Source: Alphaproteobacteria bacterium (GTDB lineage: Bacteria > Pseudomonadota > Alphaproteobacteria > JAJFIK01). Taken from it: a stretch of 64,000 nt of DNA. The position numbers and the translations under genes were made by a program. The stretch covers positions 1,136 through 65,135 of the forward strand of contig JBHJGV010000061.1 of the NCBI GenBank assembly GCA_050331455.1, written 5' to 3'. Of this stretch, positions 28,638 to 57,259 are shown in pieces (the stretch's first letter is position 1; each line of letters starts with the position of its first letter). Below the pieces are notes generated by a model. It was not told where the DNA came from and did no database searches. It saw nothing but the letters and a program-made list of their open reading frames with translations.

Positions 28638-29506
28638 GGGGTCTCCCGTGCAGACAATCTGGGATCCAGCACGTCCCGCAATCCGTCCCCAAGCAGATTG
28701 AACCCCAGAACGGCGACAAAAATCGCAAAGCCCGGAAAGATCACGAGCCAGGGCGCTACATCCGCCAGGGTCTGACTGTCCGACAGCATGCGGCCCCAAC
28801 TCGGCGCCGGCGGCTGGGTTCCAAGGCCCACATAGGACAGTCCCGCTTCGGCGAGGATGCCAAGGGAAAACTGGATCGTGCCTTGAACGATCAGCAGACT
28901 GGCAATATTGGGCAGAATATGTTCAGCGGAAATCCGTGCCCGTCCCTTTCCGGCCACCTGAGCCGCCAGAACGTACTCCCGGGACCAAAGTGACAAGGCT
29001 CCGCCCCGGGCCAGGCGGGCGAAGACCGGAATGTTGAAAATGCCAATGGCGATGATGGCATTCACGGCCCCAGGCCCGAACACCGCCGTCATCAAAATCG
29101 CCAGCACCAGGGCCGGAAAGGCGAAGATGACGTCGTTGCTGCGCATCAGCAGGCTGTCCGCAGGACCGCGGCTGGCGGCCGCGGCGAGGCCGATGGGCAC
29201 GCCAACCCCAATTCCGAAGCCCACGGCCAGAAATGCCACGGCCAGGGAATTGCCGGCCCCCACCATGACCATGGACAGACCATCCCGGCCGAGAGCATCC
29301 GTCCCCATGGGGTGGCTCCAGGAGGGCCCTTGCAGCCGGTCCGCCACGGCAAGGGCCGCCGGATCATAGGGCGTCCAGAGGAGAGAGATAAGGGCGACGC
29401 CGGCCACCAGAGCCGTCAGGCCGAAGCCGGACAGCAGGCTCCAGCTCCACCGCATCCAGGTCGGGGACCGGCGTTTCGATCGCATGCGATCGGCCGCGGG
29501 CCTCAT
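28634..29506 (-). CDS. Peptide ABC transporter permease (DppC/OppC-like)
   Basis: HPMGTDALGRD, EYV.AA..AG EAA loop, HILPN, EAGLSY.GLG, GDGLRD.LDPR. Confidence 0.93.
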   Translation of the reverse strand: MRPAADRMRSKRRSPTWMRWSWSLLSGFGLTALVAGVALISLLWTPYDPAALAVADRLQGPSWSHPMGTDALGRDGLSMVMVGAGNSLAVAFLAVGFGIGVGVPIGLAAAASRGPADSLLMRSNDVIFAFPALVLAILMTAVFGPGAVNAIIAIGIFNIPVFARLARGGALSLWSREYVLAAQVAGKGRARISAEHILPNIASLLIVQGTIQFSLGILAEAGLSYVGLGTQPPAPSWGRMLSDSQTLADVAPWLVIFPGFAIFVAVLGFNLLGDGLRDVLDPRLSARETP

Positions 29507-32097: not shown

Positions 32098-32185
32098 GGC
32101 GTGATCGGTCCTCTTGGCGCTGCACGGGACTCCGCACACGACACGGAGCCAAGCCGCAATCTAGCACCCTAATCAAGGGGGCAGG

Positions 32186-32659: not shown

Positions 32660-35600
32660 TCAAACCGTCTTCTGGCGAGACGCTGGGTCGGGCGCGCCGG
32701 GCTTTGCCTCACCGTCCTCCTGCCGGTTCAGCAACGCACACAGCGCATTGCGGACATCCTGGTTGGATGCCCGGGCCTTGGTCAGCAGCCGGGCCCCTTT
32801 GGGCAGCCGGGACGGCGCGATAGCCTGGGAGGAATAAATCAGCAGGCGTGGGGTCGGGCCATCCTCGCCGCCGACCAGTGCACCAGGGTCCTCCAGTCCG
32901 TCCCCATCGGGCAACTGGGGGTCCATGACGATGACATTGGGCCGCTCGGAGGCGATGACCGCCCGGGCAGCCATCCGTGTCCCCACGGCACGAACCTCTC
33001 CCACATCTGCGATGAGTTGCTCAAGGACCCGGACGATCCCCATATCGCTCTCAACGATCAGAATACGGTTCAAGCCGGACTTGTCGCGGAACAGGGGCTC
33101 CGCGGCCACCGGCGGCGCCTCGTGCACCGCGTGCTCGGGGGCGCGCTCGGGGGCGCGTTTGGGAAGATCGATGTGGAATGTCGTGCCCTGACCGGTCTGG
33201 GTCTCGAATCCGATGGTGCCCTCGAATTTTTCCACAATTGCCTTGGCGATGCTCAGGCCAAGGCCGGTGCCACCGGTCTGCCGGGCATTGGATCCATCCG
33301 CCTGGGTGAACTTGTCGAAGACGAACGGATGATAGTCCGGCGGGATGCCCGGTCCCTGGTCGCGCACCAGAATGCGGGCCCGCCCGGCCTGATCGCGCGA
33401 GGCAATGGTCACAGCGTCTCCGGCGCTGGAGAATTTGATGGCATTGGAGAGCAGATTGGCCATGACCTGGGCGAAACGGTCCGCATCCACCGTGACCCAT
33501 ATGTCGTCGGGACCCGGATCGAGCAAGACCGTTACGGACCGCTCCAGGGCCAGCCCCTCGGCCTCCCGTTTCGCCTTTGCCAGAAGGCCGTGGAGGGCGT
33601 GGGGCGCAAGGTCGAAATCGAGCTGTCCAGCCTCGATTTTGTCCATGTCCAGAATATCGTTGAGGATCTGGACAAGTCGATCCCCATTGGCCTGGGCGAT
33701 GTCGAGCAGTTCCTGCACCTTTGGCGACAGGGCGCCCAGTCGGCCGGAACGGATGAGCCCGACGGCGCCCATCACGGATGTCATGGGCGAGCGCAGTTCG
33801 TGGCTCACCGTGGACACGAACTCGCTTTTCATTAGTTCCCCCGTCTTGCGGTCGTGAATGTCCATGATGGATCCGATCATCCGCACCGGCTTGCCGGCCT
33901 CATCCCAGATGGCCTGACCGGACCCGAGGAACCAGCGATAGCCCTGGTGCTTGTGCTTCAGACGATACTCCACACGGAAAGGCACCTTGCGGTGCAGATG
34001 CGCGTCCACCGCCTCGAAGGTTGTCTCCACATCGTCCGGGTGGATCAGGGAACGGAAAAGGGAGACCGTGGTCTCCACCTCCCCCGGCTCGAAACCCAAC
34101 AACTCGAAAAACAACGGCGACCACCAGGTGTTTTCCTGACTGACATCGGCCCAGTCCCAGACGCCCACGCTCATGCCCTGGACGGCGGTGGCGAAGCGTT
34201 CGTCGCTGCGCCGCAGCGCCGCCTCGGTTCGGCGAATCGGCGTTAGATCCGTATGCGTTGCAACGAGGCGAAGGGGCTGTCCGTCCGCGCCCCATTCGAT
34301 CACCTGCCCCCGGGTCAGGACCGTGGCAAGGGAGCCGTCCTTGCGCCGGTAGCGCATTTCCTGGGACAGCCGATCCTCACCCCCGATCGCCACATGCCGG
34401 CGCAGCGCCTCCTGGAAGGCCTTCTGGTCTTCCGGGAGGGCAAGGGCCTGCCACTCCGCCGGCTCATGGGCTTTTTCAGAAGGCTCATAGCCCAGGATCT
34501 GCCAGAACCGGGGTGACATGTATTGAACATTCTTGGCGAAATCCCAGTCCCAAAAACCGTCATAGCTGATTTTCATCAGGGCGGTCCGCTCCGCCTCCCG
34601 CTGTTTGCGGTCGCTGATGTCATGCAGGGAACCGAGCATGCGCACCGGCGTGCCGTCCCGGTCCCAGATCGCCTGGCCCCGGGAATGGAGCCAGATATAA
34701 GACCCGTCCGGACGGTGGAGGCGGAATTCGATGTCATAGGGCGCGCGCTCCTCCAGATGCCGGGTGCGGGCCTCCAGGAGCGCGTCCCGATCGTCCGGGT
34801 GCACCAAACTGGCCAGCCGTTCGATGCTCGGCTTGAATGTCTTTGGGTCCTGGCCCGTGATCTCGAACAGGCGCGGCGACCAATACATGGTGCCCTTGCG
34901 GATATCGAAATCCCAGAAGGCGGCACCGGAGCCGCGCAAGACGAGGTCGTAGCGCTCCTGGCTTCGGCGAAGGGCCTGTTCGGCCCGCCGGTCCTCCGTA
35001 ACATCGACGGAGGTGACCAAAATCAACCGCTGACCGGTCTCGGGATCGGTGTAGGGAACACGGTCGGTCCGCAGCCACCGGTCCGGGCCGTTGCGGCTGA
35101 CATCGGGTTCGATGACCCCGAAGGAAGGCTCTTCGGTATCGAAGACCCGAAGATCCGCCTCGTGCCAGACTTCGGACTGGTCCGGAAACAACGCTTTGAC
35201 GGAGGTGCCTTCGGCAATTTCCGGGCGCACGCCGAGACGGTCGGCTGCATGGCGGTTGAGTCCGAGGATCCGATTGGTGTCGTCCTTCACCATGATCCGG
35301 ACGGGAACGAGATCAACGACATCCGGCAGGGACGGCACGCCGGGCGCGGCACCGCGTGCGGGGTGCCGTGCCCCGTCCGCACCCAGATCGTCCAGCGATC
35401 CGCCCATGCGCAGGGGCCGTCCGTCCGCGTCCCGGATTGCCTGGCCGCAGATTTGAACGGTGATGTAGGGTCGCTCGCCACAACGCATGCGGCAGGTGAT
35501 GTTGAAGGGCCCGGTCCCGGACAGATGGGCCTGGAGCGCTTCGGCCACGCGCACCCGGTCGTCCGGATGCAGCGCCCGTTCGAAATCCTCTGATTTCGGG

Positions 35601-36658
35601 GCCATCAGCGGCTCCTCGATGCCGAGCATGGCATCGATGTGCGCCGTCCAGTACAGGCGGTTCGCCCGGATGTTCCAGTCCCACAACCCCACCCGCGCAC
35701 CCTCGGCGACGAGGCCATAGCGTTCCTCGGCCTCCTTCAGGCGTTGACTGAGATCGGCAACCGCCTGGGTGGACCGGGCGCTCAAGGCGCTCTGGCGCCA
35801 GGCGAACAGGACCGCGTAGACCGCCCCGGCAACGGCCAGGGTCGCAAGGCATCCGAGCACCAGCACCAGGAGGGGCATCAAATAGACGTCCCCGAACAGG
35901 ATCGTCCGTCGGGGACGCAGCACCAGGGTCCATGTGTTGCCGAAGAAGGACAGCGTGGAGGCGAAGGTGTTCGCAGCAAAGCCCTGTTCGGCCCCTTGGA
36001 CCAGATCGAGCACCGCGGCGTCGCCGAGGATGGGCAGCCAGTCCTCGAACACGGCGAAGGTGACCCCGTCATCCGCGTTTGGCAGCCGCGCCGCGTCGAA
36101 CAGATCCGGCAGGGCCAGGACACCGGCGACGAGACCCGAGAGGCCCGACGGAGGCAGCACGGGCACATAAATCCGCAACCCCTTGCCCCCCGACGCAAGA
36201 TCGATGGTCTTGGTGACCAGGGTCGGTGTGTCGGTCAAATCGAAGGGACCGGCAGCCGCCAGGCGCTCGGCCTGCGGAAAGGACAGGGCGGCCGCGCCGG
36301 CCGGATCAAGCGGGCTCTCCACCCATTGGAGTTCCAGGTCCGGATCGAGGGCGGCAATGGCCAGCAAACCCGGCAGATCCGCCACCAGGGCGGCCGCCTC
36401 GCCGCGTTGCGCTGCGTCCGGGATCCCGGACGGGCCGGCCCAACTCTGGGCGAGCCGTTCCAGTGCCCGCACGGTGCCGATCAGTGAACCGCGCAAGCGG
36501 GCGGCATGGTCGGCAACCGCGCGCTCGCCGGCCTCGCGGTATGCCGTCCGCTCCATGCGATTGAGTTCGAGACCGGAAAAAACGCTGGCCGCAAGGCCCG
36601 CCGCGAGGATCGTGACAGGGATAAGAACCAGGACATCGATGACGCGCTTTGTCCTCAT
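32660..36658 (-). CDS. Hybrid sensor histidine kinase (CHASE-like periplasmic domain, about 5 PAS, HisKA, HATPase, REC)
   Basis: Two TM segments, repeated G.WDW...HP.D PAS units, SHELRSP, NLLSNAIKFS, GTGLGL, C-terminal receiver; GGAGGAGG SD. Confidence 0.93.
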   Translation of the reverse strand: MRTKRVIDVLVLIPVTILAAGLAASVFSGLELNRMERTAYREAGERAVADHAARLRGSLIGTVRALERLAQSWAGPSGIPDAAQRGEAAALVADLPGLLAIAALDPDLELQWVESPLDPAGAAALSFPQAERLAAAGPFDLTDTPTLVTKTIDLASGGKGLRIYVPVLPPSGLSGLVAGVLALPDLFDAARLPNADDGVTFAVFEDWLPILGDAAVLDLVQGAEQGFAANTFASTLSFFGNTWTLVLRPRRTILFGDVYLMPLLVLVLGCLATLAVAGAVYAVLFAWRQSALSARSTQAVADLSQRLKEAEERYGLVAEGARVGLWDWNIRANRLYWTAHIDAMLGIEEPLMAPKSEDFERALHPDDRVRVAEALQAHLSGTGPFNITCRMRCGERPYITVQICGQAIRDADGRPLRMGGSLDDLGADGARHPARGAAPGVPSLPDVVDLVPVRIMVKDDTNRILGLNRHAADRLGVRPEIAEGTSVKALFPDQSEVWHEADLRVFDTEEPSFGVIEPDVSRNGPDRWLRTDRVPYTDPETGQRLILVTSVDVTEDRRAEQALRRSQERYDLVLRGSGAAFWDFDIRKGTMYWSPRLFEITGQDPKTFKPSIERLASLVHPDDRDALLEARTRHLEERAPYDIEFRLHRPDGSYIWLHSRGQAIWDRDGTPVRMLGSLHDISDRKQREAERTALMKISYDGFWDWDFAKNVQYMSPRFWQILGYEPSEKAHEPAEWQALALPEDQKAFQEALRRHVAIGGEDRLSQEMRYRRKDGSLATVLTRGQVIEWGADGQPLRLVATHTDLTPIRRTEAALRRSDERFATAVQGMSVGVWDWADVSQENTWWSPLFFELLGFEPGEVETTVSLFRSLIHPDDVETTFEAVDAHLHRKVPFRVEYRLKHKHQGYRWFLGSGQAIWDEAGKPVRMIGSIMDIHDRKTGELMKSEFVSTVSHELRSPMTSVMGAVGLIRSGRLGALSPKVQELLDIAQANGDRLVQILNDILDMDKIEAGQLDFDLAPHALHGLLAKAKREAEGLALERSVTVLLDPGPDDIWVTVDADRFAQVMANLLSNAIKFSSAGDAVTIASRDQAGRARILVRDQGPGIPPDYHPFVFDKFTQADGSNARQTGGTGLGLSIAKAIVEKFEGTIGFETQTGQGTTFHIDLPKRAPERAPEHAVHEAPPVAAEPLFRDKSGLNRILIVESDMGIVRVLEQLIADVGEVRAVGTRMAARAVIASERPNVIVMDPQLPDGDGLEDPGALVGGEDGPTPRLLIYSSQAIAPSRLPKGARLLTKARASNQDVRNALCALLNRQEDGEAKPGAPDPASRQKTV

Positions 36659-37122
36659 TCTTCCTCCTCCTGTCAGGAACGGTGCGGACAACCCGTGGCA
36701 CGGGGCCAGTCTTCGAGCGAAGACGCTTGGTCGGCGGTTTTTTGACCGGTGGCTCTTGGGCCGGCAGCCTTGGGGTCTGCGACTCCAGGGTGCCGTCCGT
36801 ATCGCCGCGATTTGGCTCGCACTGCAAACGGTTTTCCGCGATGCCCGCCGTGTTCGCCACTCAACCGGGGTAGCACGTCCCGGCGCTTGTCGCCCGGATC
36901 GCGGGATGGATGGCATGGATCCTGCGGACCGAATGCCGAGCATAGATTGATTTTAAGCAAACAATACCAGAAGCTAGGGAGGGGTTAAGGATTGTGGGTG
37001 GGCGTGCACTGTCTCAGGTCCGGCGCATGGGGGATCACCAGTGGCGGCCGTGAGTTTCCCCCGCCCGGCAGGCCCTTAGCAAGAACAGGGTCACGAGCAT
37101 GGGGCCGACCAGGGCTCCACAA

Positions 37123-37215: not shown

Positions 37216-40200
37216 TCAGAGCCGCTTGAGATTGTCGCCGGAATTGCGGTCGATCAGCTTCGCATAGGGATCGATGCCGACCACCGCGGGCCGCTCGTCC
37301 ACCGTCACGGTGATGGTCTGCTTGCCCGTGGTCACCCGGTGCTTCTTCACCTCGATCACGTGGTCGTCGCCCTCGTTGACATCGTCCGGATGGATCGTGA
37401 AAAGACCGATATCGATGGGCAGATCGAGGGGCATTGCCTCCTCCTGGCCCTCCCCGTCGGCTTCCACCTTGTCGGCCTCCACCGTGATGGCCACGTCGAA
37501 GCGCCCATCGTCGCGCTCGGTCACTTCGGCCTGGGTCACCTTCAGATCCCACAGAACGATCCGCTCAAAAAGATCCGTAATCAGCTCATCATGCTCGGGC
37601 CCGGCCTCTTCGCGCAGAATGCGCAGGAAATCGAGGGTCGTCGCGTAGGGCTCGCTGTTGAAAGCACGCAGATCGATGAGCCGCTGGAGCGCGCGGTTCA
37701 CCACCGCCTCGCCCACATAGTCCTTAAGGGCGTACATGGCCACAGCCCCTTTCCGGTAGTGGATATAGGCTTGGTTTTCCACGCGATTGAGGGGCAGTTC
37801 TTCAATCTGTTCGCCGCCCCGCGCCCGCAGATAGGTGTCGAGTTCGTATTTCAGGAACCGGCGCATAATGGCGGGCCCTTGCAGCTTCTCCATCACCATC
37901 AGCGCCGAGTACTGGGCGAAGGTCTCCACGATCATGGTGGATCCCTGGACATTCGCGGGCAGCACCTGGTGCGCCCACCACTGGTGCGCCACCTCATGGG
38001 CCGTCACATAGGTGATGATGTCGATGCTGGCGGGGTCGCGCACATCGGCGATGAAGCCGATGCCTTCCGAATAGGGCACCGTATTCGGAAAGGATTGGGC
38101 GAAACTCGCATAATCGGGGAATTCCAGGATCCGCATCTGGCGGAATTGGAAGGGGCTGAAATGCTCCGTGAAGTAATCAAAGCTCAGCTTCATGGCCTCA
38201 ATCATGCGCTCGACATTATAGGCGTGGGGCTCGTGGTAGTAGACCTCCAGAGTGACATCCGGCTGGCCGTCCCGCTCCGCCTTCCAGACGTCACGCGCAA
38301 CCGCATAGTCGGCCGAGAGATAGGAGAAGAAGGCAAGAATGGGCGTGTCCATTTCATATTCGAAATAGTGCCGGCCGTTTTCTTGCCAGTCCCGCGTCAG
38401 ATAGCCCGGCGCGATCGCCGTCTGGCCAATCTTGGTACTGACCGTCGTGCGGAAGGGGACCCAGGCGGAATGCCGGGTGTAGGCGTTCTTGTTGTAATAC
38501 TCCGTCTGTTCCAGCTTGGGCATCCGGTCCACGGGCTCCTTGCCGAGCCGGCGGCGGGTGTTCCGGTCCAGGATCATTTTTTGGCGCCGAAACCCGGGCA
38601 CGGGTAGGATCTGGCCGCTGTCGACGAAGGTCCCATTATAGACGATGCGGGTGCCGTTGTTCGAATTGCGGAACCCGTCATAGTCCCAGACGATCTTGAA
38701 GGTCAGGGTGCGCTGCTCGCCGGGCGCCATGGGCTTATCGAGCGCGAAGATGAAATAGTTGTGGGTGCGGTCCTCGGTTCGAAGGGTGGCACCAGCGAGT
38801 TTCAGCGTGGCGACTTCGGGCGCAAAGGCCACGTCGTAGTGGACTTCGTCGATCGGGACGTCGTCCTTGTTTTCGAGCAGATAGGTGCCCCGCGCCTCGA
38901 CCCGCAGAGCGTCCGGAAAAATATCCACGTCCGTCTGGATGTCGACGATCGCGGGCTCCAACCGATCCTCATAGCGCCGGTAAGCCTCCTCATAGGCGAT
39001 GGCCCGCGCCTCGGTGTCGTCCCGCGTGACGTAGCTGTTGAGGATATTGGTGTTGTAATAGATGAAGGCGCCGCTGCCGACGAAGCCGAGCACGCCCACG
39101 GACAGGGCGACCGCCGTGATGGGGCCGAGATTGCCGCCCATGCGGCTGATCCGCATCAGGAGGGATGTGTTTCCGCCCCGCATCCACAGGAGATAGCTGA
39201 GCATCATCAGCACACCGGAAAAGCAGGTCCAGTACAGGTAGAACCAGAACACGCCGGTCAGGTAGTGGCCGTTGCCGTTCATGTCCGACAGGGGCGCAAA
39301 GGGTGCGCCGCCGAACTGGTAGAGATTGTGCTCATAGCCCACATTGACGAGGGAAACCTGGGCCACCAGGACCAGGACCATGATCAGGATACCGACATAG
39401 CGGTTGAGCGAGATCACCTGCACGAACAGGCTCAACATGGCGGTGAGCAGGAGCGGCCAGCCGAACACGAGGATCAATCGGAAAGCGTAAAGGCCGTAAT
39501 CGATCTGTGTAAAGCCTTTACTGAGTTGGGCGGCGATGCCCGTGAGCATGGCCACGGCCATCAGGGATAAGAGCACCAGGGCCATGGCCAGGAATTTCGA
39601 AAACACGAAGACCCAATTGGGCGCCGGCGTTGAATCAATGATCTCGTGGATCTGATAGGTGCGCTCGCGCCACACGACCTCCGAGGCGTAGTAGACCGCC
39701 ACCACGGCAGGCACGATGGAGAAGGTGCCGAACAGCAATTCGATCATGACCCGGGTGACCGGATAGGCCGGTACGTCATAGAGCAGATCGAAATTCAGGA
39801 GGGCGCCCAGGCTGTTGAAGATGCCAAGGGCAAGCAGCACCCAGAACGCCACGCTGCGCACGACGGCCGACACCTCAAAGCGGGTGCGCAAGGCAAACTG
39901 ACTCCAGGCCGTTCCGCCGGTGAACACCGGTGTGACCTTCGGCAGAGCGATGCGCGTGGGGACGAACCGTGCGTCGGTGGCCGCATCGGATTTGCGGCGC
40001 CGGCCGCCCCGGGTTGAGCGGGCACGGAAGGAAAAGGTCAGAATATTGACCACCAGGAACGCGATACCGACCCCAAGCCACAGAACACGGTTGACCAGGA
40101 AGGATCCTTCGAGGGGGACAAGCTGGGTGTTGCGCTCAAAGGCGGTCCAATAGCGCGTCTCGAGCCCGTAGGTGAGGAAGCCCAGCGGATCGTAGGGTGC

Positions 40201-40812
40201 GGCCGCCTGCAGCATCTCCGGATCACTGGTGAGACTCACGCCGACGAAATAGGCCACCAGGAACACCACGAGCGCCGTGTAGACCGCAATGGTGCTGCGG
40301 GTCAGATTGGCCACCGTGAAAAAGATCATGCCGGTGACGAGCAGGTTGACCGCCCCGATCACGAAAAAACTGTACACGTAGTGACCGGGAACCAGAGGAC
40401 CGAGGCGGTCCGGGTTCAGCCAGGGCATGGCGCTGCCGATCAGGATGGCCAAGGGCACGCTGGAAAACACGACCAGCACCGCGGCGAAGGCTCCCAGGAA
40501 CCGGCCGAGCAGGAAGGTCCGCGGAGAAATCGGCAGGGTATAGAACATCTCCTGGGTGCGCAGCTCCCCATCCCGCATCACCACATTGGAGAGCAACGCG
40601 GCGGGGATGAACAAGCCGATGAGCCCCATGACCAGGATGATCTGGGCAATCGCGAAGGGGGAATTGATGTTAACGTTCCCCGTCGAGCCGATGGTGACCT
40701 GATCGACCGTGACGGCGGCAAAGGTCAGCAGGAAGAAGATCGAAAAAATGATCGGCGACACAAGCTGGCGCCACTGGTAACCGAATTCGAAACGCGCAAG
40801 GCTCCACAACAT
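37216..40812 (-). CDS. ABC-2 type permease fused to M1 family Zn aminopeptidase
   Basis: Two multi-TM ABC-2 membrane halves, then HEVAHQWW..E (HEXXH-X18-E) and HYRKGA catalytic Tyr, C-terminal GIDPY.KLIDR. Confidence 0.9.
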   Translation of the reverse strand: MLWSLARFEFGYQWRQLVSPIIFSIFFLLTFAAVTVDQVTIGSTGNVNINSPFAIAQIILVMGLIGLFIPAALLSNVVMRDGELRTQEMFYTLPISPRTFLLGRFLGAFAAVLVVFSSVPLAILIGSAMPWLNPDRLGPLVPGHYVYSFFVIGAVNLLVTGMIFFTVANLTRSTIAVYTALVVFLVAYFVGVSLTSDPEMLQAAAPYDPLGFLTYGLETRYWTAFERNTQLVPLEGSFLVNRVLWLGVGIAFLVVNILTFSFRARSTRGGRRRKSDAATDARFVPTRIALPKVTPVFTGGTAWSQFALRTRFEVSAVVRSVAFWVLLALGIFNSLGALLNFDLLYDVPAYPVTRVMIELLFGTFSIVPAVVAVYYASEVVWRERTYQIHEIIDSTPAPNWVFVFSKFLAMALVLLSLMAVAMLTGIAAQLSKGFTQIDYGLYAFRLILVFGWPLLLTAMLSLFVQVISLNRYVGILIMVLVLVAQVSLVNVGYEHNLYQFGGAPFAPLSDMNGNGHYLTGVFWFYLYWTCFSGVLMMLSYLLWMRGGNTSLLMRISRMGGNLGPITAVALSVGVLGFVGSGAFIYYNTNILNSYVTRDDTEARAIAYEEAYRRYEDRLEPAIVDIQTDVDIFPDALRVEARGTYLLENKDDVPIDEVHYDVAFAPEVATLKLAGATLRTEDRTHNYFIFALDKPMAPGEQRTLTFKIVWDYDGFRNSNNGTRIVYNGTFVDSGQILPVPGFRRQKMILDRNTRRRLGKEPVDRMPKLEQTEYYNKNAYTRHSAWVPFRTTVSTKIGQTAIAPGYLTRDWQENGRHYFEYEMDTPILAFFSYLSADYAVARDVWKAERDGQPDVTLEVYYHEPHAYNVERMIEAMKLSFDYFTEHFSPFQFRQMRILEFPDYASFAQSFPNTVPYSEGIGFIADVRDPASIDIITYVTAHEVAHQWWAHQVLPANVQGSTMIVETFAQYSALMVMEKLQGPAIMRRFLKYELDTYLRARGGEQIEELPLNRVENQAYIHYRKGAVAMYALKDYVGEAVVNRALQRLIDLRAFNSEPYATTLDFLRILREEAGPEHDELITDLFERIVLWDLKVTQAEVTERDDGRFDVAITVEADKVEADGEGQEEAMPLDLPIDIGLFTIHPDDVNEGDDHVIEVKKHRVTTGKQTITVTVDERPAVVGIDPYAKLIDRNSGDNLKRL

Positions 40813-40849
40813 GGCCCGGGTCCCTCCTTGATCTGGCAATGGGTTGGGA

Positions 40850-41752
40850 TCAGGCCGCCGTCCGGGCGCCCTCGCCCGACCGGGTGGCGCGCTCGGCGAG
40901 CGTGTTGAAATAGAGATCCTCAAGGGTCGGATCCACCGGGTCGAACCCGGCCGGGGCGCTGTCCGCAGCCACATGAATCACCATGCGCCCCCCTTGCAGC
41001 CGCGTGGCAATCACCCTGTGGCGCGCCCGCGCCGCCTCCAGATCGTCCTTGTCCACCACGGTCCGCCAGATGCGGCCCCGGAGCCCTTCCACGAGGGCCA
41101 TGGGCTCGCCTTCGACGACGATCTGACCGCCGGCGAGAATCGCCATGCGGGGACACAACTGGGCCACATCTTCAACGATGTGGGTCGACAGGATCACAAC
41201 GACGTTTTCGCCGATTTCGCTCAAAAGGTTGTGGAAGCGATTGCGCTCTTCCGGGTCGAGGCCCGCGGTGGGCTCGTCGACGATGATCAGGCGCGGGTCG
41301 CCGAGCAGGGCCTGGGCGATCCCGAAACGCTGGCGCATGCCGCCAGAATAGGTGGCGAGGCCTTTACGGCGGACATCGTAGAGATTGGTTTGGCGCAACA
41401 ATTCGTGGACCACGTCCTTGCGTTCGCCGGACGGAATGCCCTTGAGGGTCGCCATGTGGAGCAGCATGCTTTCGGCGGATATGCGGGGATAGACGCCAAA
41501 ATCCTGGGGCAGATAGCCGAGGATCCGGCGGATGCCGGTCGGGTTCTCAAGGACGTCGATACCGTCAAAGGCAATCGTGCCCTCGTCCGGCTGTTGCAGC
41601 GTGGCGATCGTCCGCATCAGGCTCGACTTGCCGGCGCCATTCGGGCCCAGCAGACCGAACATGCCCTTGGGAATGTCCAGGGAGACGGCATCGAGGGCGC
41701 GCACACCATTCCCGTATGTCTTCGTCAAACCCTTGATGCTCAGCATGCCCAT
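40850..41752 (-). CDS. ABC transporter ATP-binding protein
   Basis: GPNGAGKS, YLPQDFG, YSGGMRQR, DEPTAGLDP, LSTH. Confidence 0.95.
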   Translation of the reverse strand: MGMLSIKGLTKTYGNGVRALDAVSLDIPKGMFGLLGPNGAGKSSLMRTIATLQQPDEGTIAFDGIDVLENPTGIRRILGYLPQDFGVYPRISAESMLLHMATLKGIPSGERKDVVHELLRQTNLYDVRRKGLATYSGGMRQRFGIAQALLGDPRLIIVDEPTAGLDPEERNRFHNLLSEIGENVVVILSTHIVEDVAQLCPRMAILAGGQIVVEGEPMALVEGLRGRIWRTVVDKDDLEAARARHRVIATRLQGGRMVIHVAADSAPAGFDPVDPTLEDLYFNTLAERATRSGEGARTAA

Positions 41753-42025
41753 CTCCCCATGAAAATCCGTCGTTCAGGACCCTTGGGATCATTACCCACG
41801 TCCCGGTCATCGCTTTAATTCTATCGGTCCCATGCTACGCGGCTATCAAAAATGCTGCGGACTTTGAGCAAGAACAGGGGCAGAGGGGACGCTTCAGCCG
41901 CATTTGCGGGCGAAGGGCCGCTGCCCGCGCCCTGTTGGAGTTGAATTCAGGTTCGAAATGTCGTCCTTTGGCTGGACAAAGGGTTTAGGGCCGAGAGGGC
42001 CGCAAATGAAGCCGGGAGGATTGGA

Positions 42026-44170
42026 ATGGGACGGTATTTGAACCGATGGACGGGCCGGGTTGCGCTCGGGCTCGCGCTGGGGTTGGGCGGCGGCTTGGCT
42101 GGCGCTCAGGCGGCTGGCACCCAGGCAGCCGAGGCTCCGCCGGCCAAGGGCGACCACGGCGCCATGGACGATGGTAAGAGGGACCACGGTAAGATGGGGC
42201 ACGGCTCCGGCCAGTTGTCCGTGTCGCGCGCTGCGCGTTCAGCGCGGATCGTGGTTCCGGAGTTCGCGGAAAATTTCCGCCTGAACGACCACGAGGGCAA
42301 GTCCCACGAGTTGCATTATCGCCGGGACGCCAAGGCCATCGTGCTAATGACCCAGGGCAACAGCTGCCCCATCGTGCGCAACACCGTGCCCGACCTGAGG
42401 GCCATCCGGGACGACTATGCCGACAAGGGCGTCGTCTTCTACATGCTGAATTCCAATCTGCAGGACACCCGCGAGACCGTCGCCAAGGAAGCCGAAGACT
42501 ACGGGTTCGACATTCCGGTGTTGATCGACGAACACCAGATCATCGGCGAGGGCCTTGGCGTGACGCGCACGGCAGAGGTCTTCGTGATCGATCCGGCCCA
42601 GGGCTTTCGTATCGTCTACCACGGTCCCCTGAACGATCGTCAGTCCTATGAGCGCCAGCGCGCTAAAGCCAGTGAGCCCTATGTGCGCCAGGTCCTCGAC
42701 CAGGTGCTCACCGGACAGGACGTGACCGTGCAGGGCCCGCCGATCATTCCGGGCTGCCTGATCAATTTTCCGTCCCGCAATGCCAATTCCCAGACGGCCA
42801 GCCTCACCTACACCAAGGATGTGGCCCCGATCCTGGTCAAAAAATGCGCCATCTGTCACCAGGAAGGCGGCATCGGCCCCTGGGCCATGACGGAATACAA
42901 GGTCGTCCAGGGCTGGACGCCCATGATGCGGGAAGTCATCCGGACCCGTCGCATGCCGCCATGGCATGCCGATCCCCATATCGGCACGTTTCAGGGCGAC
43001 CGCTCTCTGACATCCGATGAAATCAAGACGATCGTTCACTGGATCGAAGCCGGCGCCCCGCGCGGCGAAGGGGAAGACCCCCTGAAGAGCGCCGATCTCG
43101 CGGCTCCGGACTGGCCGCTGGGCAAGCCCGATCTGATCCTGAAAGCGCCGGCCTTCACGGTACCTGCGACCGGCGTGATCGATTACGAGCACCCCGTCCT
43201 AGAGAATCCGCTAAAGGAAACGAAGTGGCTGAAGGCGACCACCTTCAAGGTCGGCGCGCGGCCGGTGGTGCACCACATCCTGTCCGGCTACATGTCCCAA
43301 GTGCCCGAAGACGGCAAAGCCTGGACCAGCCGTTGGGAGTTCTCGACGGGCGGCTATGCCGTTGGGGCGGAAAGCATGGAATATGGTGACGATGCCGGCG
43401 TGCCCCTGCCGGCTGGCGGCGCCATCGGCCTGCAGATGCACTACACCCCGACCGGCAAGGAAATGACCGACGTGACAGAGGTCGGCTTCTACTTCCATGA
43501 CGAGAAGCCGAAATACATCAATCGCTCCACGGTGATCCTCGATGCGTCCATCGTCATCCCGCCGGGCGAGTCGCGTCATACGGAGACGGCCTATATCAAG
43601 TTTCCGAAAGACGCGATCCTCATCCAGGCTTTCCCCCATGCCCACTATCGTGGCCACGCCTCCAAGTTGACCCTACGGCGGCCGGACGGCTCGGAAGAGG
43701 TCCTGGTTTCGCTGCCGAAATACGACTTCAACTGGCAGCGGTCCTATGTGTTCGAAGAGCCCATCGACATCCCGGCAGGATCCCTGCTCATCGCCGATAC
43801 GGTCTATGACAATTCGGAACTGAACTTCGCCAATCCGGGTGCGGACAAGACGGTTCTGTGGGGCGAGCAAACCCATGAGGAAATGCTCTACACGGCCATG
43901 ATCTTCCGCTGGAAGGACGAAACCACGGACAATCTGAAAGAGGAGTACAACACACTCCTCGACCGCGGTCGTTTGTTCTGGTCGATGGACGACAATATCG
44001 ACGGTGTGCTCCAGCCCGCAGAGTTGCGCGGTCGGGTCGGTGAACCGCTCAAGCCGCATATCGCCAAGTTCGATGCGGACAAGAACGGCGTCTACAGCCT
44101 CAAGGAGTTCAACACCGCCCGTCAGACCCTGCGCCGCATGCGCCAGCAGCGCCAGCAAAGCGAAGACTAA
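42026..44170 (+). CDS. Exported redoxin / cytochrome c / copper type II (PHM-like) monooxygenase / EF-hand protein
   Basis: Signal peptide; redoxin (SCPIV, TRTAEVFV, GCLI); CAICH and MPPW; HH, QMHY, PHAH, EEM; DxNxDG and DxDxNG loops. Confidence 0.82.
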   Translation: MGRYLNRWTGRVALGLALGLGGGLAGAQAAGTQAAEAPPAKGDHGAMDDGKRDHGKMGHGSGQLSVSRAARSARIVVPEFAENFRLNDHEGKSHELHYRRDAKAIVLMTQGNSCPIVRNTVPDLRAIRDDYADKGVVFYMLNSNLQDTRETVAKEAEDYGFDIPVLIDEHQIIGEGLGVTRTAEVFVIDPAQGFRIVYHGPLNDRQSYERQRAKASEPYVRQVLDQVLTGQDVTVQGPPIIPGCLINFPSRNANSQTASLTYTKDVAPILVKKCAICHQEGGIGPWAMTEYKVVQGWTPMMREVIRTRRMPPWHADPHIGTFQGDRSLTSDEIKTIVHWIEAGAPRGEGEDPLKSADLAAPDWPLGKPDLILKAPAFTVPATGVIDYEHPVLENPLKETKWLKATTFKVGARPVVHHILSGYMSQVPEDGKAWTSRWEFSTGGYAVGAESMEYGDDAGVPLPAGGAIGLQMHYTPTGKEMTDVTEVGFYFHDEKPKYINRSTVILDASIVIPPGESRHTETAYIKFPKDAILIQAFPHAHYRGHASKLTLRRPDGSEEVLVSLPKYDFNWQRSYVFEEPIDIPAGSLLIADTVYDNSELNFANPGADKTVLWGEQTHEEMLYTAMIFRWKDETTDNLKEEYNTLLDRGRLFWSMDDNIDGVLQPAELRGRVGEPLKPHIAKFDADKNGVYSLKEFNTARQTLRRMRQQRQQSED

Positions 44171-44206: not shown

Positions 44207-44240
44207 AAAGAGGGTGCCGCGCGGCACCCTCTTTTTTTTT
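44207..44240 (+). terminator. Rho-independent terminator
   Basis: AAAGAGGGTGCC-GCGC-GGCACCCTC followed by T9. Confidence 0.88.
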
Positions 44241-44329: not shown

Positions 44330-45262
44330 TCAGCCCCAGGGGCCGGCCGCGCGGCGGGCTTTCACGGATCCCGTCGGTGATGCGCCCCCGCCCGCTTCGG
44401 CGAGCGCCTTGATGCGCACCTCCAGCGGCGGGTGGCTGGCGAAGAGGGCATGCAGCCGTCCTCCGCTAATGGCCATGGCCTGCATTTCGTCGGGCAGGGA
44501 CGGTCCGCCATAGGTTCGCTGCAGCGCCTGAAGGGCGCGGATCATCGAATCGCGCCCCGCAAGGTCGGCGCCGCCGATATCCGCTCGGAACTCCCGCTGC
44601 CGCGAGAACCACATGACGATCATCATGGCGAGAACGCCGAAAAGCATTTCGGCAATCAGGGAGACGATCCAGAAGGCGGGGCCGTGCCCCTCTTCCACCC
44701 GAAAGACCACCCGGTCCACGAAATGGCCGACAATGCGGGACAGAACGATCACAAAGGTGTTCACCACCCCCTGGATCAGGGCCAGGGTGACCATGTCCCC
44801 ATTGGCCACATGGGCGACCTCATGGCCAAGCACGGCGGCGACTTCATCCGCTTCCATATGGTCGAGCAGCCCGGTGCTCACGGCCACCAGGGCGGCGTTC
44901 TTGTTCCACCCGGTGGCGAAGGCATTTGGCGAGGGATGATCGAAGATGCCCACCTCGGGCATGCCGATGCCTGCCCGCTGGGCCTGGGCCCGTACCGTCT
45001 CCACAATGAAACGTTCGGCATCGTTGCGCGGGCGCTTGATGACCTCCACCCCCATGGACGCCTTGGCCATGGGTTTGGAAATCAGGAGCGAAATGATCGA
45101 TCCCGAAAAGCCGATGACGGCCGCGTAAACCAGCAAAGCCGAAAGATTGAGGTCCACGCCGTTCTCGGCGAGCAGACCGCTGAAACCGAACAGACTGAAA
45201 ACAATGCTGATCATCGCCAGAATGGCGATGTTGGTTCCGACGAAAAGCAGGATCCGAAGCAC
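44330..45262 (-). CDS. htpX: Zinc metalloprotease HtpX
   Basis: RILLFVGTN, PNAFATG, VAVSTGLL, HEVAH.ANGDMVT, FSRQREFRAD, SHPPL; GTG start. Confidence 0.96.
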   Translation of the reverse strand: MLRILLFVGTNIAILAMISIVFSLFGFSGLLAENGVDLNLSALLVYAAVIGFSGSIISLLISKPMAKASMGVEVIKRPRNDAERFIVETVRAQAQRAGIGMPEVGIFDHPSPNAFATGWNKNAALVAVSTGLLDHMEADEVAAVLGHEVAHVANGDMVTLALIQGVVNTFVIVLSRIVGHFVDRVVFRVEEGHGPAFWIVSLIAEMLFGVLAMMIVMWFSRQREFRADIGGADLAGRDSMIRALQALQRTYGGPSLPDEMQAMAISGGRLHALFASHPPLEVRIKALAEAGGGASPTGSVKARRAAGPWG

Positions 45263-45332
45263 CGGATGACCCTCCCCTAAGGTTGACGGCATGCCGCGCC
45301 GGGGCGCCCGACGCGTCATCGTGCCGAGCCTT

Positions 45333-45362
45333 AGATGGGACGAGCGCGGCCATGGGTTCAAG
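45333..45362 (-). promoter_or_regulatory. RpoH (sigma32) heat-shock promoter for htpX
   Basis: Minus strand reads CTTGAA-N17-CCCATCT, about 70 nt upstream of htpX. Confidence 0.75.
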
Positions 45363-54136: not shown

Positions 54137-54769
54137 TCAGTATTTCACGGAACAACCATAGGGTGTTGTCACCGCTTCGGTCACGGCCTCGCCCGCTTCC
54201 AGTTCACCGAGGGCGATCCGGACATAGTTGCGTGCGCCTTCGACCGTGCTCTTGCGGCTCGTTGGCTTATCATCAATTGCGCCCATATAGCGGAGCACAC
54301 CGTCCTCATCCACAATATACATATGCGGCGTCGTCTTGGCGTCGTACAGTCGGCCGATGTCCCCGGACTCGTCCAGGATCACATAGTCCGGGCTGGCATT
54401 GCGCTTTTCCGTGAGGGCATTGGCTTCCTGGGCCGACACATGACCCTGCTTTCCGGGGGCGGACGAGATGACCGTCACCCAGACCACATCGCGCTCGGCC
54501 GCGTCTTCCTGAAGGCTCTGCATGTTGTCCGTGTCGTAGTGTTTACGGACATAGGGGCAGTCATGGTTGGTCCATTCCAGGATGACCTTGCGGCCCTCTT
54601 TGGCCATGGAGGACAGGGTGAACGTCCCACCGTCGGACGTGGTGCCGGTGAAGTCCGGCGCCGCCTTATTGACGTCCGGTGCCGCCATGGACACGCCCAT
54701 CGCGGCGATGGTCACACTGGCCGCCGTTGCCGTGGCCACGGCCACGCGTTTGATCGCAAGACTCAGCAT
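54137..54769 (-). CDS. Exported AhpC/TSA-type redoxin
   Basis: Signal peptide, APDF, EWTNHDCPYVRKHY, AKTTPHM, Y.GAIDD, PYGCSVKY. Confidence 0.9.
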   Translation of the reverse strand: MLSLAIKRVAVATATAASVTIAAMGVSMAAPDVNKAAPDFTGTTSDGGTFTLSSMAKEGRKVILEWTNHDCPYVRKHYDTDNMQSLQEDAAERDVVWVTVISSAPGKQGHVSAQEANALTEKRNASPDYVILDESGDIGRLYDAKTTPHMYIVDEDGVLRYMGAIDDKPTSRKSTVEGARNYVRIALGELEAGEAVTEAVTTPYGCSVKY

Positions 54770-54795
54770 CGCTCCCTCCACTTGGTTCTGTCCGT

Positions 54796-57135
54796 CTACA
54801 GAGACTTGACGGTCTCCAGGATCACGGATTCACGCAACAATTGCGGCAGAATGATGGGGTCGGGCGCCGTTCCATCCGCACCGCGCGGCGGATAGAAGAC
54901 ATAGAGCGGCACGCCGCTGCGCCCGAACCGGTCCAGCATCTCGGTGATCTGGGCGTCCCGGTTGGTCCAGTCACCCTTCATGTAGACGATCCCCGCCTCC
55001 TCGAACCGGCGGGCCACGGCCGGCTGACTAAAGGCGACCCGCTCATTGACCAGGCAGGTGATGCACCAGGCCGCCGTGACGTTCAGGAACACGGGCGTGC
55101 CTCCGGCCCGCAGGGCCTCAAGGCGGTCGGGATCGAAGGCCACGGCCTCCAGACCGCCATCGGCCATGGCCACGCTTTGAGAGGCCTGCGCCGTAGAGGC
55201 CCCATCAACGCCGTCACGGCTGGCAAAGACCAGCAGGGTGCCCGCGCCGAGAAGCGCAACGGCTGCCGCCAGCCGGACCGTGACCTGGCCGGCCCCGCCG
55301 GTCGACAGGCTGCCGCGCTGGGTCAGTCCGAACAGCCAGGCGCCGAAGCCGAGTACGACCCCCGCCGCCAGCACCAGGGCAAGCCCAGGCGCGCCCACCT
55401 GCTGGGTGAGAACCCACAGCAGCCAGGCCGCGGTGCCAAACATGGGAAAGGCCAGGACCTGGCGGACGATCTCCATCCAGGCGCCGGGTTTCGGCAGATG
55501 GCGGAGCAGACCGGGCACGAAACTGAGCACCAGCCAGGGCAGCGCCATGCCTAAACCAAGGGCGGCGAACACCGTCAGAGAAAACAGGACAGGCTGGGTC
55601 AACGCCGCAGCGATGGCCGCACCCATGAACGGCGCCGTGCAGGGCGTCGCCACGACCGTGGCCAGGGTACCGGTCAAGAACGCCCCGACCGCTCCGCCCC
55701 GGTCTCCCAGGTCGCCGCCGGCTCCCATGATCGAGGTACCAATCTCGAACACGCCGGACAGGTTAAGCCCGATCGCCAGCATCAGAAGGAACAGGGATCC
55801 CATCACCAAGGGATCCTGGAGCTGGAAGCCCCAGCCGATCTGGGCCCCGCCGGCCCGCAAGGCGATGAACAGGCCTGCCAGTGCCACGAAGGACACCACG
55901 ACGCCCGCGGTAAAGGCGAGCCCATGCAGGCGGGCCACCATGGGGCCCTCCTGGGCCGCCGCGACAAGACCGAAGGCCTTCATGAACAGGATGGGGAACA
56001 CGCACGGCATCAGATTGAGGATCAGGCCGCCGAGCAGGGCAAAGAGCAGCGCCTGCCCAAGACCGATCTGAAGGGCCGCTGGGCCGCCGGGGGCAGACGT
56101 GCCCAGGGCCGTGGCCGCCAGCCCCTCGCTGAGCGATCCGGCCTGCGCCGTGATGCGGATGCCCCGGTGCAGCGTCTCGCCCGTACTGCGATCCGTCAGC
56201 ACCAACAGCCCGGACACGGTCGACGGCGCCTTGGACCCATCACCGCGGAACAAAAATCCGGCGCCGGTCGACAGGCTGAACCCATCGGGCCCATAGCGCA
56301 CGATTTGCGGTGCCGGATTGTCGATGACCCCGCTTTCGTCCGGGAAAAATACCATCGCCTCGACCCGGCCAGGGCCGAATGTGCCCTCCAGTTCCGGGGC
56401 CGAAACACCCAGGGCGAAGGTGCCATCCGAGACCGAAAACCGGGAGGGCCAGGGCACGGTCTGGGGCAGTGCCTCCCGCGCCGCCGCGATAAGGGGGGCT
56501 GCCTCGGGATCGGCGACCGGCGTGCCGGCCTCGACGGGCAATTCAAGGCGCAGCACGGCGTCCTGGGGAATGCAGATTTCCTCGCAGACCAGCCAATAGG
56601 CATGGGCCTCAAGGGGGAGCCGGGCGCCCGGTGTTAGGCCTGCGGGCACGGTGACGGGCACCAGCAGCACCGCCTCGTCCTCGAACCCGAAATTGACCAG
56701 CGGACCGTAGGGCAGCCGCTCCGGCAGGGGCCAGCCCATCTCACCGGCCTCGAAGCCTTCGGGGAGCGACCATTCCAGAACCGTCGGCTCGCCCGAGTCC
56801 CCCGGGTTTTTGTAATAGGTATGCCAGCCCGGGATCATGGTCTGGCGCAGGGCCATCCACATCACCCCGCCCTCGGCGGGCAATGTGCGCCATTCGGCCA
56901 GGAGGGCGACCTTCACTTCATCCGTGCTCGCGGTGGATTGACCGTCCTGGTCACCAGATCCGGGCGGCGGCGTGTCGAGCCCCGGCATGGCCTCCCCCGG
57001 CGCGCGCGACATCAGCGCCCGGCCGGCGTCCGCCGATGCCGCATGGGCGGTCTGGACCGTGATCGGCGCAAGCCAGGTCCCGAAGATCATGCTCGCCAAG
57101 ATCAGGGCATTCACCATCGGGGCAATGGACTTCAT
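54796..57135 (-). CDS. DsbD/ScsB-family thiol:disulfide interchange protein
   Basis: WHTYYKNPGDSG, CEEIC, MPCVFP and TPCTAP membrane Cys, WCITC thioredoxin domain. Confidence 0.92.
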   Translation of the reverse strand: MKSIAPMVNALILASMIFGTWLAPITVQTAHAASADAGRALMSRAPGEAMPGLDTPPPGSGDQDGQSTASTDEVKVALLAEWRTLPAEGGVMWMALRQTMIPGWHTYYKNPGDSGEPTVLEWSLPEGFEAGEMGWPLPERLPYGPLVNFGFEDEAVLLVPVTVPAGLTPGARLPLEAHAYWLVCEEICIPQDAVLRLELPVEAGTPVADPEAAPLIAAAREALPQTVPWPSRFSVSDGTFALGVSAPELEGTFGPGRVEAMVFFPDESGVIDNPAPQIVRYGPDGFSLSTGAGFLFRGDGSKAPSTVSGLLVLTDRSTGETLHRGIRITAQAGSLSEGLAATALGTSAPGGPAALQIGLGQALLFALLGGLILNLMPCVFPILFMKAFGLVAAAQEGPMVARLHGLAFTAGVVVSFVALAGLFIALRAGGAQIGWGFQLQDPLVMGSLFLLMLAIGLNLSGVFEIGTSIMGAGGDLGDRGGAVGAFLTGTLATVVATPCTAPFMGAAIAAALTQPVLFSLTVFAALGLGMALPWLVLSFVPGLLRHLPKPGAWMEIVRQVLAFPMFGTAAWLLWVLTQQVGAPGLALVLAAGVVLGFGAWLFGLTQRGSLSTGGAGQVTVRLAAAVALLGAGTLLVFASRDGVDGASTAQASQSVAMADGGLEAVAFDPDRLEALRAGGTPVFLNVTAAWCITCLVNERVAFSQPAVARRFEEAGIVYMKGDWTNRDAQITEMLDRFGRSGVPLYVFYPPRGADGTAPDPIILPQLLRESVILETVKSL

Positions 57136-57259
57136 TCGCAAAGCGTTCTCTCCTGTTGAGGACGAGGCTGGTCTCTCCTGTTCCGCCGTCCATGCGACGG
57201 ACGCGCTCCAGGGTCAAGGCACCGGCCGATAAGTCCAACCAATTTTTAGGGAGAAGAGC

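Follow-up and report, generated by a model that had tools for sequence, protein, structure and literature searches.

A bacterial haem-copper protein related to PHM and DBH: a probable periplasmic monooxygenase with accessory redoxin and EF-hand-like modules

The window considered here is the whole stretch of 64,000 nucleotides taken from contig JBHJGV010000061.1 of an alphaproteobacterial assembly, and the gene that raises a question lies on its + strand at 42026..44170. This open reading frame encodes a protein of 714 amino acids plus a stop codon (P0001), in which a redoxin, a c-type cytochrome, a copper core like that of the monooxygenases PHM and DBH and a pair of EF-hand-like loops follow one another in a single chain. 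What does such a fusion protein do, and which of its parts would bring electrons to the copper? A preliminary description, made from the sequence alone, had answered that the redoxin and haem domains form a relay to the copper sites, and that the protein is a 'self-sufficient' oxygenase.

The motifs on which this answer was built, namely the signal peptide, the His/Met-rich leader, CPIV and GCLI, CAICH, MPPW, HH, QMHY, PHAH, EEM and the two loops, were all found in the open reading frame, each at the position given for it. The set of domains is beyond chance, as Pfam, AlphaFold2, Foldseek, VIA and profile matches all contribute to it, and the assignment of a redoxin, a c-type haem site, a PHM/DBH-type core and EF-hand-like loops was borne out by the combination of Pfam, profile, fold and conservation. 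Conservation was assessed in 104 full-length relatives. Of these, 16 are close relatives, and the other 88 came from the 150 best haem-copper representatives, filtered for a Met start, a length of 550-730 amino acids and exactly one CxxCH at position 180-260. Because CxxCH was used in the filter, its conservation in this set is by construction; the copper residues were not used. The AlphaFold2 model of the whole protein, built on the same 104 relatives, has a predicted local distance difference test score (pLDDT) of 91.1 and a predicted template modelling score (pTM) of 0.86. Only residues 1-3 and 24-64 are disordered in the model, the latter with a pLDDT below 50.

The copper core and the haem domain

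PHM and DBH carry two mononuclear coppers, which lie approximately 11 Å apart across a solvent cleft. CuH is held by three histidines and CuM by two histidines and a methionine, and ascorbate serves as the reductant. A core of the same kind, built of two beta-sandwiches, occupies residues 363-637 of the fusion protein (43112..43936, +). The CuH-type residues are H416, H417 and H472, and the CuM-type residues are H538, H540 and M620. The H416-H417 pair is encoded at 43271, H472 is found in QMHY, H538-A-H540 in PHAH and M620 in EEM. In the Foldseek search, DBH (E = 1.7e-14) and PHM (E = 1.9e-14) took the top ranks, with E values for PHM and DBH structures overall of 1.7e-14 to 4e-13 and a TM score by target of 0.65-0.70 for PHM. 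The expected likeness to rat PHM was confirmed by a VIA superposition of residues 366-661 on PHM residues 54-345, which gave Z scores of 16.5-16.7 and a root-mean-square deviation (rmsd) of 3.3-3.4 over 268-270 of approximately 305 residues and covered both beta-sandwich domains.

The relationship can also be detected without the model. A profile of the full-length family matched PHM at E = 5e-7 and DBH at E = 1.4e-6, and a profile of the core alone, made from the short forms of the family that are described below, matched DBH at E = 2.8e-6 and PHM at E = 1.4e-5. In the HMMER alignments the VHH of the family falls on TVHHM of PHM and VHHM of DBH, the HY on QVHYG and VHYHN, and the PHxH on VHTH and LHTH, so that by alignment five of the six copper ligands match PHM and DBH residue for residue. 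The sixth candidate, M620, ends the match to the Pfam model Cu2_monoox_C (residues 510-620). The spacings between the ligands are 55, 66 and 80 residues, which we take to be similar to those in PHM. That six candidate ligands are present in the expected order had been noted before; it was now found that they are kept in 101 to 104 of the 104 relatives (H416 104, H417 101, H472 101, H538 102, H540 104, M620 101). The six ligands and M310 of the haem domain are invariant in 52 short-form core sequences, a result that is partly circular, since some of these motifs were part of the peptide patterns by which the short-form loci had been retrieved.

Other residues of the pocket are invariant as well, namely R542, W570, Q571 and N596, of which Q571 is kept in 103 of the 104 relatives and is aligned by HMMER with a Gln of DBH. 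These residues bear on the simplest alternative, according to which the fusion protein is a non-catalytic periplasmic carrier of copper or electrons, that is, a copper store, a chaperone, or a cytochrome with a decorative beta-sandwich. Such a role would agree with the His/Met-rich linker of the protein and with a gene context that offers neither a substrate clue nor conserved partner genes. However, two conserved ligand sets in the PHM arrangement, accompanied by R542, W570, Q571 and N596 and maintained through thousands of divergent sequences, are characteristic of an active site, and the carrier is regarded as very improbable.

The copper core is preceded by a mono-haem c-type cytochrome domain at residues 255-362 (42788..43111, +), with the haem attachment site C274-A-I-C277-H278, the codon of C274 beginning at 42845, and M310 within RMPPW. 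Among the 150 best haem-copper representatives, taken without the filter, CxxCH was present in 141, and most of the nine sequences that do not have it begin past the motif. M310, which is kept in all 104 full-length relatives, is the candidate distal axial ligand of the haem, opposite H278. Profile matches to known structures were weak: the alpha subunit of hydrazine synthase (5c2v_A) was matched at E = 1e-3 to 1e-2 and PccH (4rlr) at E = 0.1-0.4. When the domain was folded alone (pLDDT 86.3), Foldseek returned no match at E ≤ 0.001. In the wide VIA comparison against representatives, the top three matches were all c-type cytochromes (PccH, Z = 7.0; YhjA, Z = 5.6; FoxE, Z = 5.2), the next match being at Z = 3.5, and PccH could be superposed with an rmsd of 1.9 over 75 residues. 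The same genome encodes the haem c maturation protein CcmE (PF03100, 117 bits).

The family to which the protein belongs is very large. At least 3,927 whole-protein relatives were found among 8,000 scored candidates, and the names that they carry at source are only 'redoxin family protein', 'peroxiredoxin' or similar. When clusters of 50% identity were searched with the haem-plus-copper part, 14,016 representatives were matched at E ≤ 1e-3, a number that falls to 8,107 at E ≤ 1e-10 and to 2,063 at E ≤ 1e-30. Most family members carry the N-terminal redoxin. Short forms of approximately 400-440 amino acids consist of a signal peptide, the haem domain and the core; a redoxin match was found in none of the nine that were scanned. 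Redoxin-less clusters of 366-441 amino acids are also present in the ESM Atlas, where the family occurs in Pseudomonadota and Acidobacteriota, and short forms were found in Planctomycetota, Blastocatellia and Armatimonas as well. Across these sequences the haem domain and the copper core are the constant unit. The constancy of the pair (CxxCH in 141 of 150, M310 in 104 of 104) strongly suggests that the haem is coupled to the copper core.

Some family members carry additional modules: EF-hands, CBM48/AMPK1_CBM, Ig-like, ankyrin and alpha/beta-hydrolase domains, a TPR region or a BlaR1-type membrane N-terminus. The frequencies of these modules carry no meaning, because the sequences concerned were chosen for their unusual length. 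C-terminal CBM48/AMPK1_CBM, Ig-like, alpha/beta-hydrolase or ankyrin modules are found on P0241, P0247, P0229, P0226, P0187 and P0233, and P0241 has a BlaR1-type M56 N-terminus in addition. In some branches, such additions may be a hint that the substrate is polymeric or bound to a surface. Two other long proteins, P0125 (1251 amino acids) and P0144 (1064 amino acids), contain two distant CxxCH motifs, and each was matched by the query twice, along separate stretches; their appearance is that of tandem or doubled haem-copper units.

Taken together, these data suggest that the fusion protein is a periplasmic copper monooxygenase of the PHM/DBH type, in which a fused haem c feeds electrons to the copper and the substrate is oxidised at the CuM-type site. 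We consider this reading probable, with room left for the others that are discussed here. With O2, such an enzyme would oxidise a C-H bond, by hydroxylation or in some other way, in a periplasmic or extracellular substrate. The His3 set (H416, H417, H472) would hold the electron-transfer copper and the His2Met set (H538, H540, M620) the oxygen-activating copper. The two electrons would arrive singly, via the fused haem (His278/Met310), at the CuH-type site. The haem would thereby take over the role that ascorbate has in the animal enzymes, and would itself be re-reduced by ordinary periplasmic carriers. To call the protein 'self-sufficient' goes too far, since it would still depend on electrons from an outside source. 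The domain identities, the fold, the conservation of the ligands, the size of the family and the organisation of the gene rest on observation; the binding of metals, the course of the electrons, the monooxygenase chemistry and the parts played by the accessory modules are inferred.

Several observations weigh against the monooxygenase reading. Single ligands are missing in a few relatives, three of the 104 each at H417, H472 and M620, and the printed HMMER alignments stop short of the Met of PHM and DBH, so that M620 is not covered by them. The Cu2_monoox_C match (PF03712) reaches 21.7 bits, just under the cut-off of 23, and the model of the N-terminal domain, Cu2_monooxygen (PF01082), gave no match to the fusion protein at E ≤ 1. 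The haem domain fares similarly, with 18.3 bits for Cytochrome_CBB3 on residues 269-315 against a cut-off of 27. The Pfam scan proposed earlier as a check thus spoke for the redoxin domain, left the copper and cytochrome matches below their cut-offs and returned no EF-hand. No model in NCBIfam was found to match the copper core. Some relatives do pass PF03712, at 25-31.6 bits (for example P0226 with 31.6 and P0211 with 28.2). The failure of the fusion protein to reach the cut-offs of PF03712 and PF01082 therefore points to a distant branch outside the curated models. The substrate is a further difficulty, as the gene context of 80 close and 80 short-form loci gave no clue to it. In PHM, an Arg two residues before the first CuM His anchors the C-terminal carboxylate of the peptide. 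When YRVHTH of PHM is aligned with llPHmH of the family, the position of this Arg is occupied by F536, and it is variable among the 104 relatives (F 28, S 14, L 12, A 12). Amidation of Gly-extended peptides in the manner of PHM is therefore unlikely, and the chemistry may differ from that of the animal enzymes more than is assumed here.

The redoxin and the other accessory modules

A thioredoxin-fold redoxin domain was identified at residues 71-254 (42236..42787, +) by Pfam, PDB sequence matches and VIA, with C114 in GNSCPIV and C244 in PGCLIN. Pfam assigned residues 81-204 to AhpC-TSA (44.9 bits, cut-off 26) and Redoxin (43.4 bits, cut-off 26.6). The PDB sequence matches 3u5r, 2ywi and 2cvb were found at E = 2e-13 to 4e-11, and VIA superposed the domain on 2ywo, 2cvb, 2ywi and 3u5r with Z scores of 22.3-22.6 and an rmsd of 2.2-2.6 over 172-175 residues. 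C114 and C244 both align with the sole two conserved cysteines of 3u5r, 2ywi and 2cvb. Among the 104 relatives, both cysteines are present in 75, neither in 25 and C114 alone in four; C244 alone was never found. This strict co-variation fits a functional cysteine pair. It also shows that a quarter of the family retains the domain with no thiol chemistry. An Asp of the same domain, D168 (encoded at approximately 42527 of the window), is invariant in all 104 relatives, including the 25 without both cysteines. The persistence of D168 where the cysteines are lost indicates that the redoxin domain has a conserved role besides thiol chemistry.

It is here that the second part of the earlier proposal has to be weighed, namely a linear relay in which electrons pass from the cytoplasm to DsbD, possibly via a stand-alone redoxin, then to the C114/C244 dithiol, the haem and finally the copper, which would make the protein a thiol-driven oxygenase. 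The window does contain a gene for a DsbD-like thiol:disulfide electron transporter (54796..57141, -; Pfam DsbD_TM, DsbD_N and Thioredoxin_7), followed after 15 nucleotides by a gene for a stand-alone redoxin of 214 amino acids with the motifs CPYV and YGCSVKY (54137..54781, -). Among PDB entries this small protein matches 2ywi best (E = 1.6e-12). Its alignment with the redoxin domain of the fusion protein brings both cysteines into register, which places the two redoxins in the same 2ywi-like subtype. The pairing of dsbD with a redoxin of the little-studied 2ywi/2cvb/3u5r subtype suggests, as an observation of its own, that this subtype is a client of DsbD. In 12 of 80 related loci the fusion gene is followed immediately, in the same orientation, by a gene for a homologue of the stand-alone redoxin. 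To this support for the relay may be added the fusion of a redoxin in most family members, the strict co-variation of C114 and C244 together with their alignment with the cysteine pair of 3u5r, 2ywi and 2cvb, and the deposition of the homologue 2ywo as a separate 'reduced' form, according to its title.

However, the domain persists in the 25 relatives that are without either cysteine, and forms with no redoxin at all are abundant, from which it appears that the core does not depend on a dithiol. All 12 loci with an adjacent redoxin come from Caulobacterales-type metagenome-assembled genomes (MAGs) and may represent one event, and a tblastn search found DsbD in none of 160 related loci. To our knowledge, there is no close precedent for a dithiol, a two-electron donor, that reduces a His/Met haem, which takes up one electron; this also counts against the relay. 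The linear relay is, therefore, seen as unlikely, if still deserving of attention. What survives of the earlier relay is its second half, the coupling of haem and core; an obligatory redoxin does not agree with the cysteine losses and the redoxin-less forms. DsbD itself, which had been named as a possible electron source, keeps that standing on account of the dsbD-redoxin pair and of the redoxin homologue in 12 of 80 loci, but not through any occurrence in the 160 loci. A link from DsbD to the redoxin is plausible within the clade of the fusion protein itself, on thin evidence. A bolder form of the idea would make the fusion protein, and with it the clade with intact C114/C244, a thiol-powered periplasmic oxygenase (DsbD to 2ywi-type redoxin to haem to PHM-type copper pair). 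O2 activation outside the cytoplasm would then be driven in a manner not described before, and the family may, in addition, be the bacterial source from which animal PHM and DBH arose; this is a speculation to which we give slightly less weight than to the relay as such.

Under the preferred reading of a haem-fed monooxygenase, the redoxin looks like an accessory and not a constant part of the enzyme. With C114 and C244 it would probably be a clade-specific redox-active dithiol module, kept reduced via the DsbD pathway. Two further elements can be regarded in the same way. The first of these is the linker that separates the redoxin from the N-terminus. Residues 1-29 (42026..42112, +) read directly as a signal peptide, with a basic start, a hydrophobic core and AQA followed by AG, and residues 2-23 form a lone helix in the model; the fusion protein is thus probably exported to the periplasm. 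In four of the 16 close relatives a lipobox is present instead of such a signal peptide. Within the disordered linker that follows, residues 43-59 form the His/Met-rich stretch DHGAMDDGKRDHGKMGH (42152..42202, +), which presumably resembles copper-binding Met/His motifs. Other His/Met-rich linkers are confined to the closest clade (P0025, P0029 and P0015 are examples). A family-wide enrichment was not seen, as the median His+Met fraction is the same in the linkers as in the remainder of the protein. Because of the lipobox in four close relatives, the linker may act as a tether, and in the proposed enzyme it would probably be a clade-specific one that catches copper.

The second element is the C-terminal helical module (43937..44167, +), in which two EF-hand-like loops of 12 residues can be read directly: D655-x-N657-x-D659...E666 and D683-x-D685-x-N687...E694, with acidic or amide residues at the ligand positions 1, 3, 5 and 12. 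The model shows a helix-loop-helix twice, with flanking helices at residues 639-654, 669-682 and 692-713 and a pLDDT of 94-97. The EF-hand models of Pfam gave no match to the fusion protein at E ≤ 1 in the full scan or at E ≤ 0.01 in a dedicated scan; among the 16 close relatives, 13 matched EF-hand_5 and 12 matched EF-hand_1. Matches of the module to lanmodulin were weak. The pair would probably serve as a clade-specific, Ca2+-dependent stabiliser.

Gene surroundings

The fusion gene has its own Shine-Dalgarno-like sequence, GGGAGGA (42014..42020, +), five nucleotides before the ATG, and 37 nucleotides past the stop codon lies a terminator-like hairpin followed by a run of T (44207..44234, +). 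On one side it is flanked by a divergent gene for an ABC ATPase (40850-41752, -) and on the other by a convergent gene for an HtpX-type M48 peptidase (44330-45361, -). Because of the orientation of these neighbours, the gene looks monocistronic. A stand-alone organisation is also indicated by its own Shine-Dalgarno-like sequence and terminator, and by the finding that no cluster of neighbours occurs in more than nine of 80 diverse short-form loci. Among the 80 close loci, no conserved neighbours were detected beyond the target itself and open reading frames that shadow it on the opposite strand, except for clusters that reflect synteny in Phenylobacterium; the small redoxin (12 of 80) is the only consistently adjacent neighbour. 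A cluster of 'ABC ATPase' genes was considered as a partner and rejected; it occurs in 21 loci but is generic, and it is adjacent only in the locus of the closest relative (L001). When the DsbD, HtpX, ABC-M1, DnaJ-like and MerR proteins of the window were compared with the 160 loci by tblastn, only L001 proved to be syntenic.

The neighbours lend some colour to another explanation, in which the protein is an oxidase or a peroxide-handling stress enzyme whose haem and copper reduce O2 or H2O2. Its activity could then be that of a thiol oxidase, cuprous oxidase or peroxidase, possibly with the peroxiredoxin-like domain as the working end. HtpX, the DnaJ-like protein and MerR are stress-type neighbours, the N-terminal domain is of the AhpC/TSA type, the haem domain is similar to the one at the N-terminus of the peroxidase YhjA (Z = 5.6), and the His/Met-rich linker presumably resembles those of copper-handling proteins. 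However, the stress-type neighbours are shared only with L001, a quarter of the relatives do without the redoxin cysteines, and the near-invariant CuH and CuM ligands, together with Q571 (103 of 104), point to O2 activation of the PHM type. A stress enzyme is accordingly held to be improbable, and a haem-fed copper monooxygenase remains the reading that we prefer.

In its own genome the fusion gene is present as a single copy. A search for RNA runs for the gene found none, a result that speaks neither for nor against its expression. Its distribution is patchy: it was found in three of 301 sampled genomes of the same class, including that of the window, and in neither of the two sampled genomes of the same family. 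Two copies in one MAG were seen in a Hyphomonas sp. (L009, L011) and in a Phenylobacterium sp. (L031, L077).

Three other open reading frames of the window, all on the - strand, deserve mention. An open reading frame of 1252 amino acids within 37216-41752 combines a long, multi-pass hydrophobic N-terminal part with an M1 peptidase domain (residues 926-1125). The ABC ATPase gene is directly upstream of it and runs in the same direction, an arrangement that is shared only with L001. At 32660-36943, a histidine kinase of 1427 amino acids contains at least four PAS_3 stretches, HisKA and HATPase_c. At 29503-32139, an open reading frame of 878 amino acids contains a family-5 solute-binding domain (residues 98-431) and an ABC permease domain (residues 564-874), and represents an unusual fusion or else a read-through of two genes.

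Comparison with known systems

We know of no characterised member of the haem-copper PHM-like family. The preliminary description had said the same, and a search of the full-text literature agrees with it: no study of bacterial PHM/DBH-like proteins was found, including in the consulted passages of PMC10244343, in a search that used partly generic terms and in which subscription journals mostly lie outside the coverage. The current names, 'redoxin family protein' and 'peroxiredoxin', hide what is probably the main function. The thousands of unstudied members, if they are secreted oxygenases, would be candidate biocatalysts and would offer a lead on the periplasmic oxidative chemistry of many marine, freshwater and soil bacteria.

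Among proteins of known structure, several resemble single parts of the fusion protein. The N-terminal domain is matched over the whole chain by 2cvb and 2ywo from Thermus thermophilus, 2ywi from Geobacillus kaustophilus and 3u5r from Sinorhizobium meliloti (SMc02350), which share with it a single Cys in C-P-x-V and a Cys in a far C-terminal G-C. These proteins are stand-alone and uncharacterised, whereas their counterpart in the fusion protein is joined to a haem-copper enzyme, and both of its cysteines are lost in 25 of the 104 relatives. The haem domain recalls two haem proteins in which CxxCH likewise lies near the N-terminus of a small helical domain: PccH from Geobacter sulfurreducens (4rlr) and, in its C-terminal haem domain, the alpha subunit of hydrazine synthase (5c2v_A). 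By score the likeness is modest, and in the present case the haem domain forms one part of a larger enzyme.

For the proposed supply of electrons by a haem there is an analogy in function. A c-type cytochrome is reported to supply electrons to a secreted bacterial lytic polysaccharide monooxygenase, where it replaces a small-molecule reductant (PMC8981238). The analogy is confined to function, as that enzyme has an unrelated fold and a histidine-brace copper site, and its cytochrome is a different domain.

The closest likeness is to PHM (1phm, 1opm, 3mll, 6ala) and DBH (4zel). The core of two beta-sandwiches, the order HH...H and HxH...M of the ligands, with M620 as the candidate for the Met, and their similar spacing are common to all, five ligands are aligned by HMMER, and Q571 is aligned with the Gln of DBH. 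DBH carries a DOMON domain in front of the core and PHM carries nothing there, whereas in the fusion protein this place is taken by a c-type haem domain. The fusion protein also differs from the animal enzymes in being bacterial and, as predicted, exported, and in its extra redoxin and EF-hand-like modules; ascorbate is not expected as its reductant. From PHM it is further set apart by F536 at the position of the carboxylate-anchoring Arg. How electrons travel between the distant coppers of PHM and DBH is still debated, and a bacterial branch with a built-in haem donor would provide a simple, ascorbate-free system in which this transfer could be studied. Because both Pfam cut-offs were missed and the substrate Arg of PHM is lacking, the fusion protein was not filed as a curated member of the PHM/DBH family; it is best described as belonging to a distant bacterial branch of that family with an architecture of its own.

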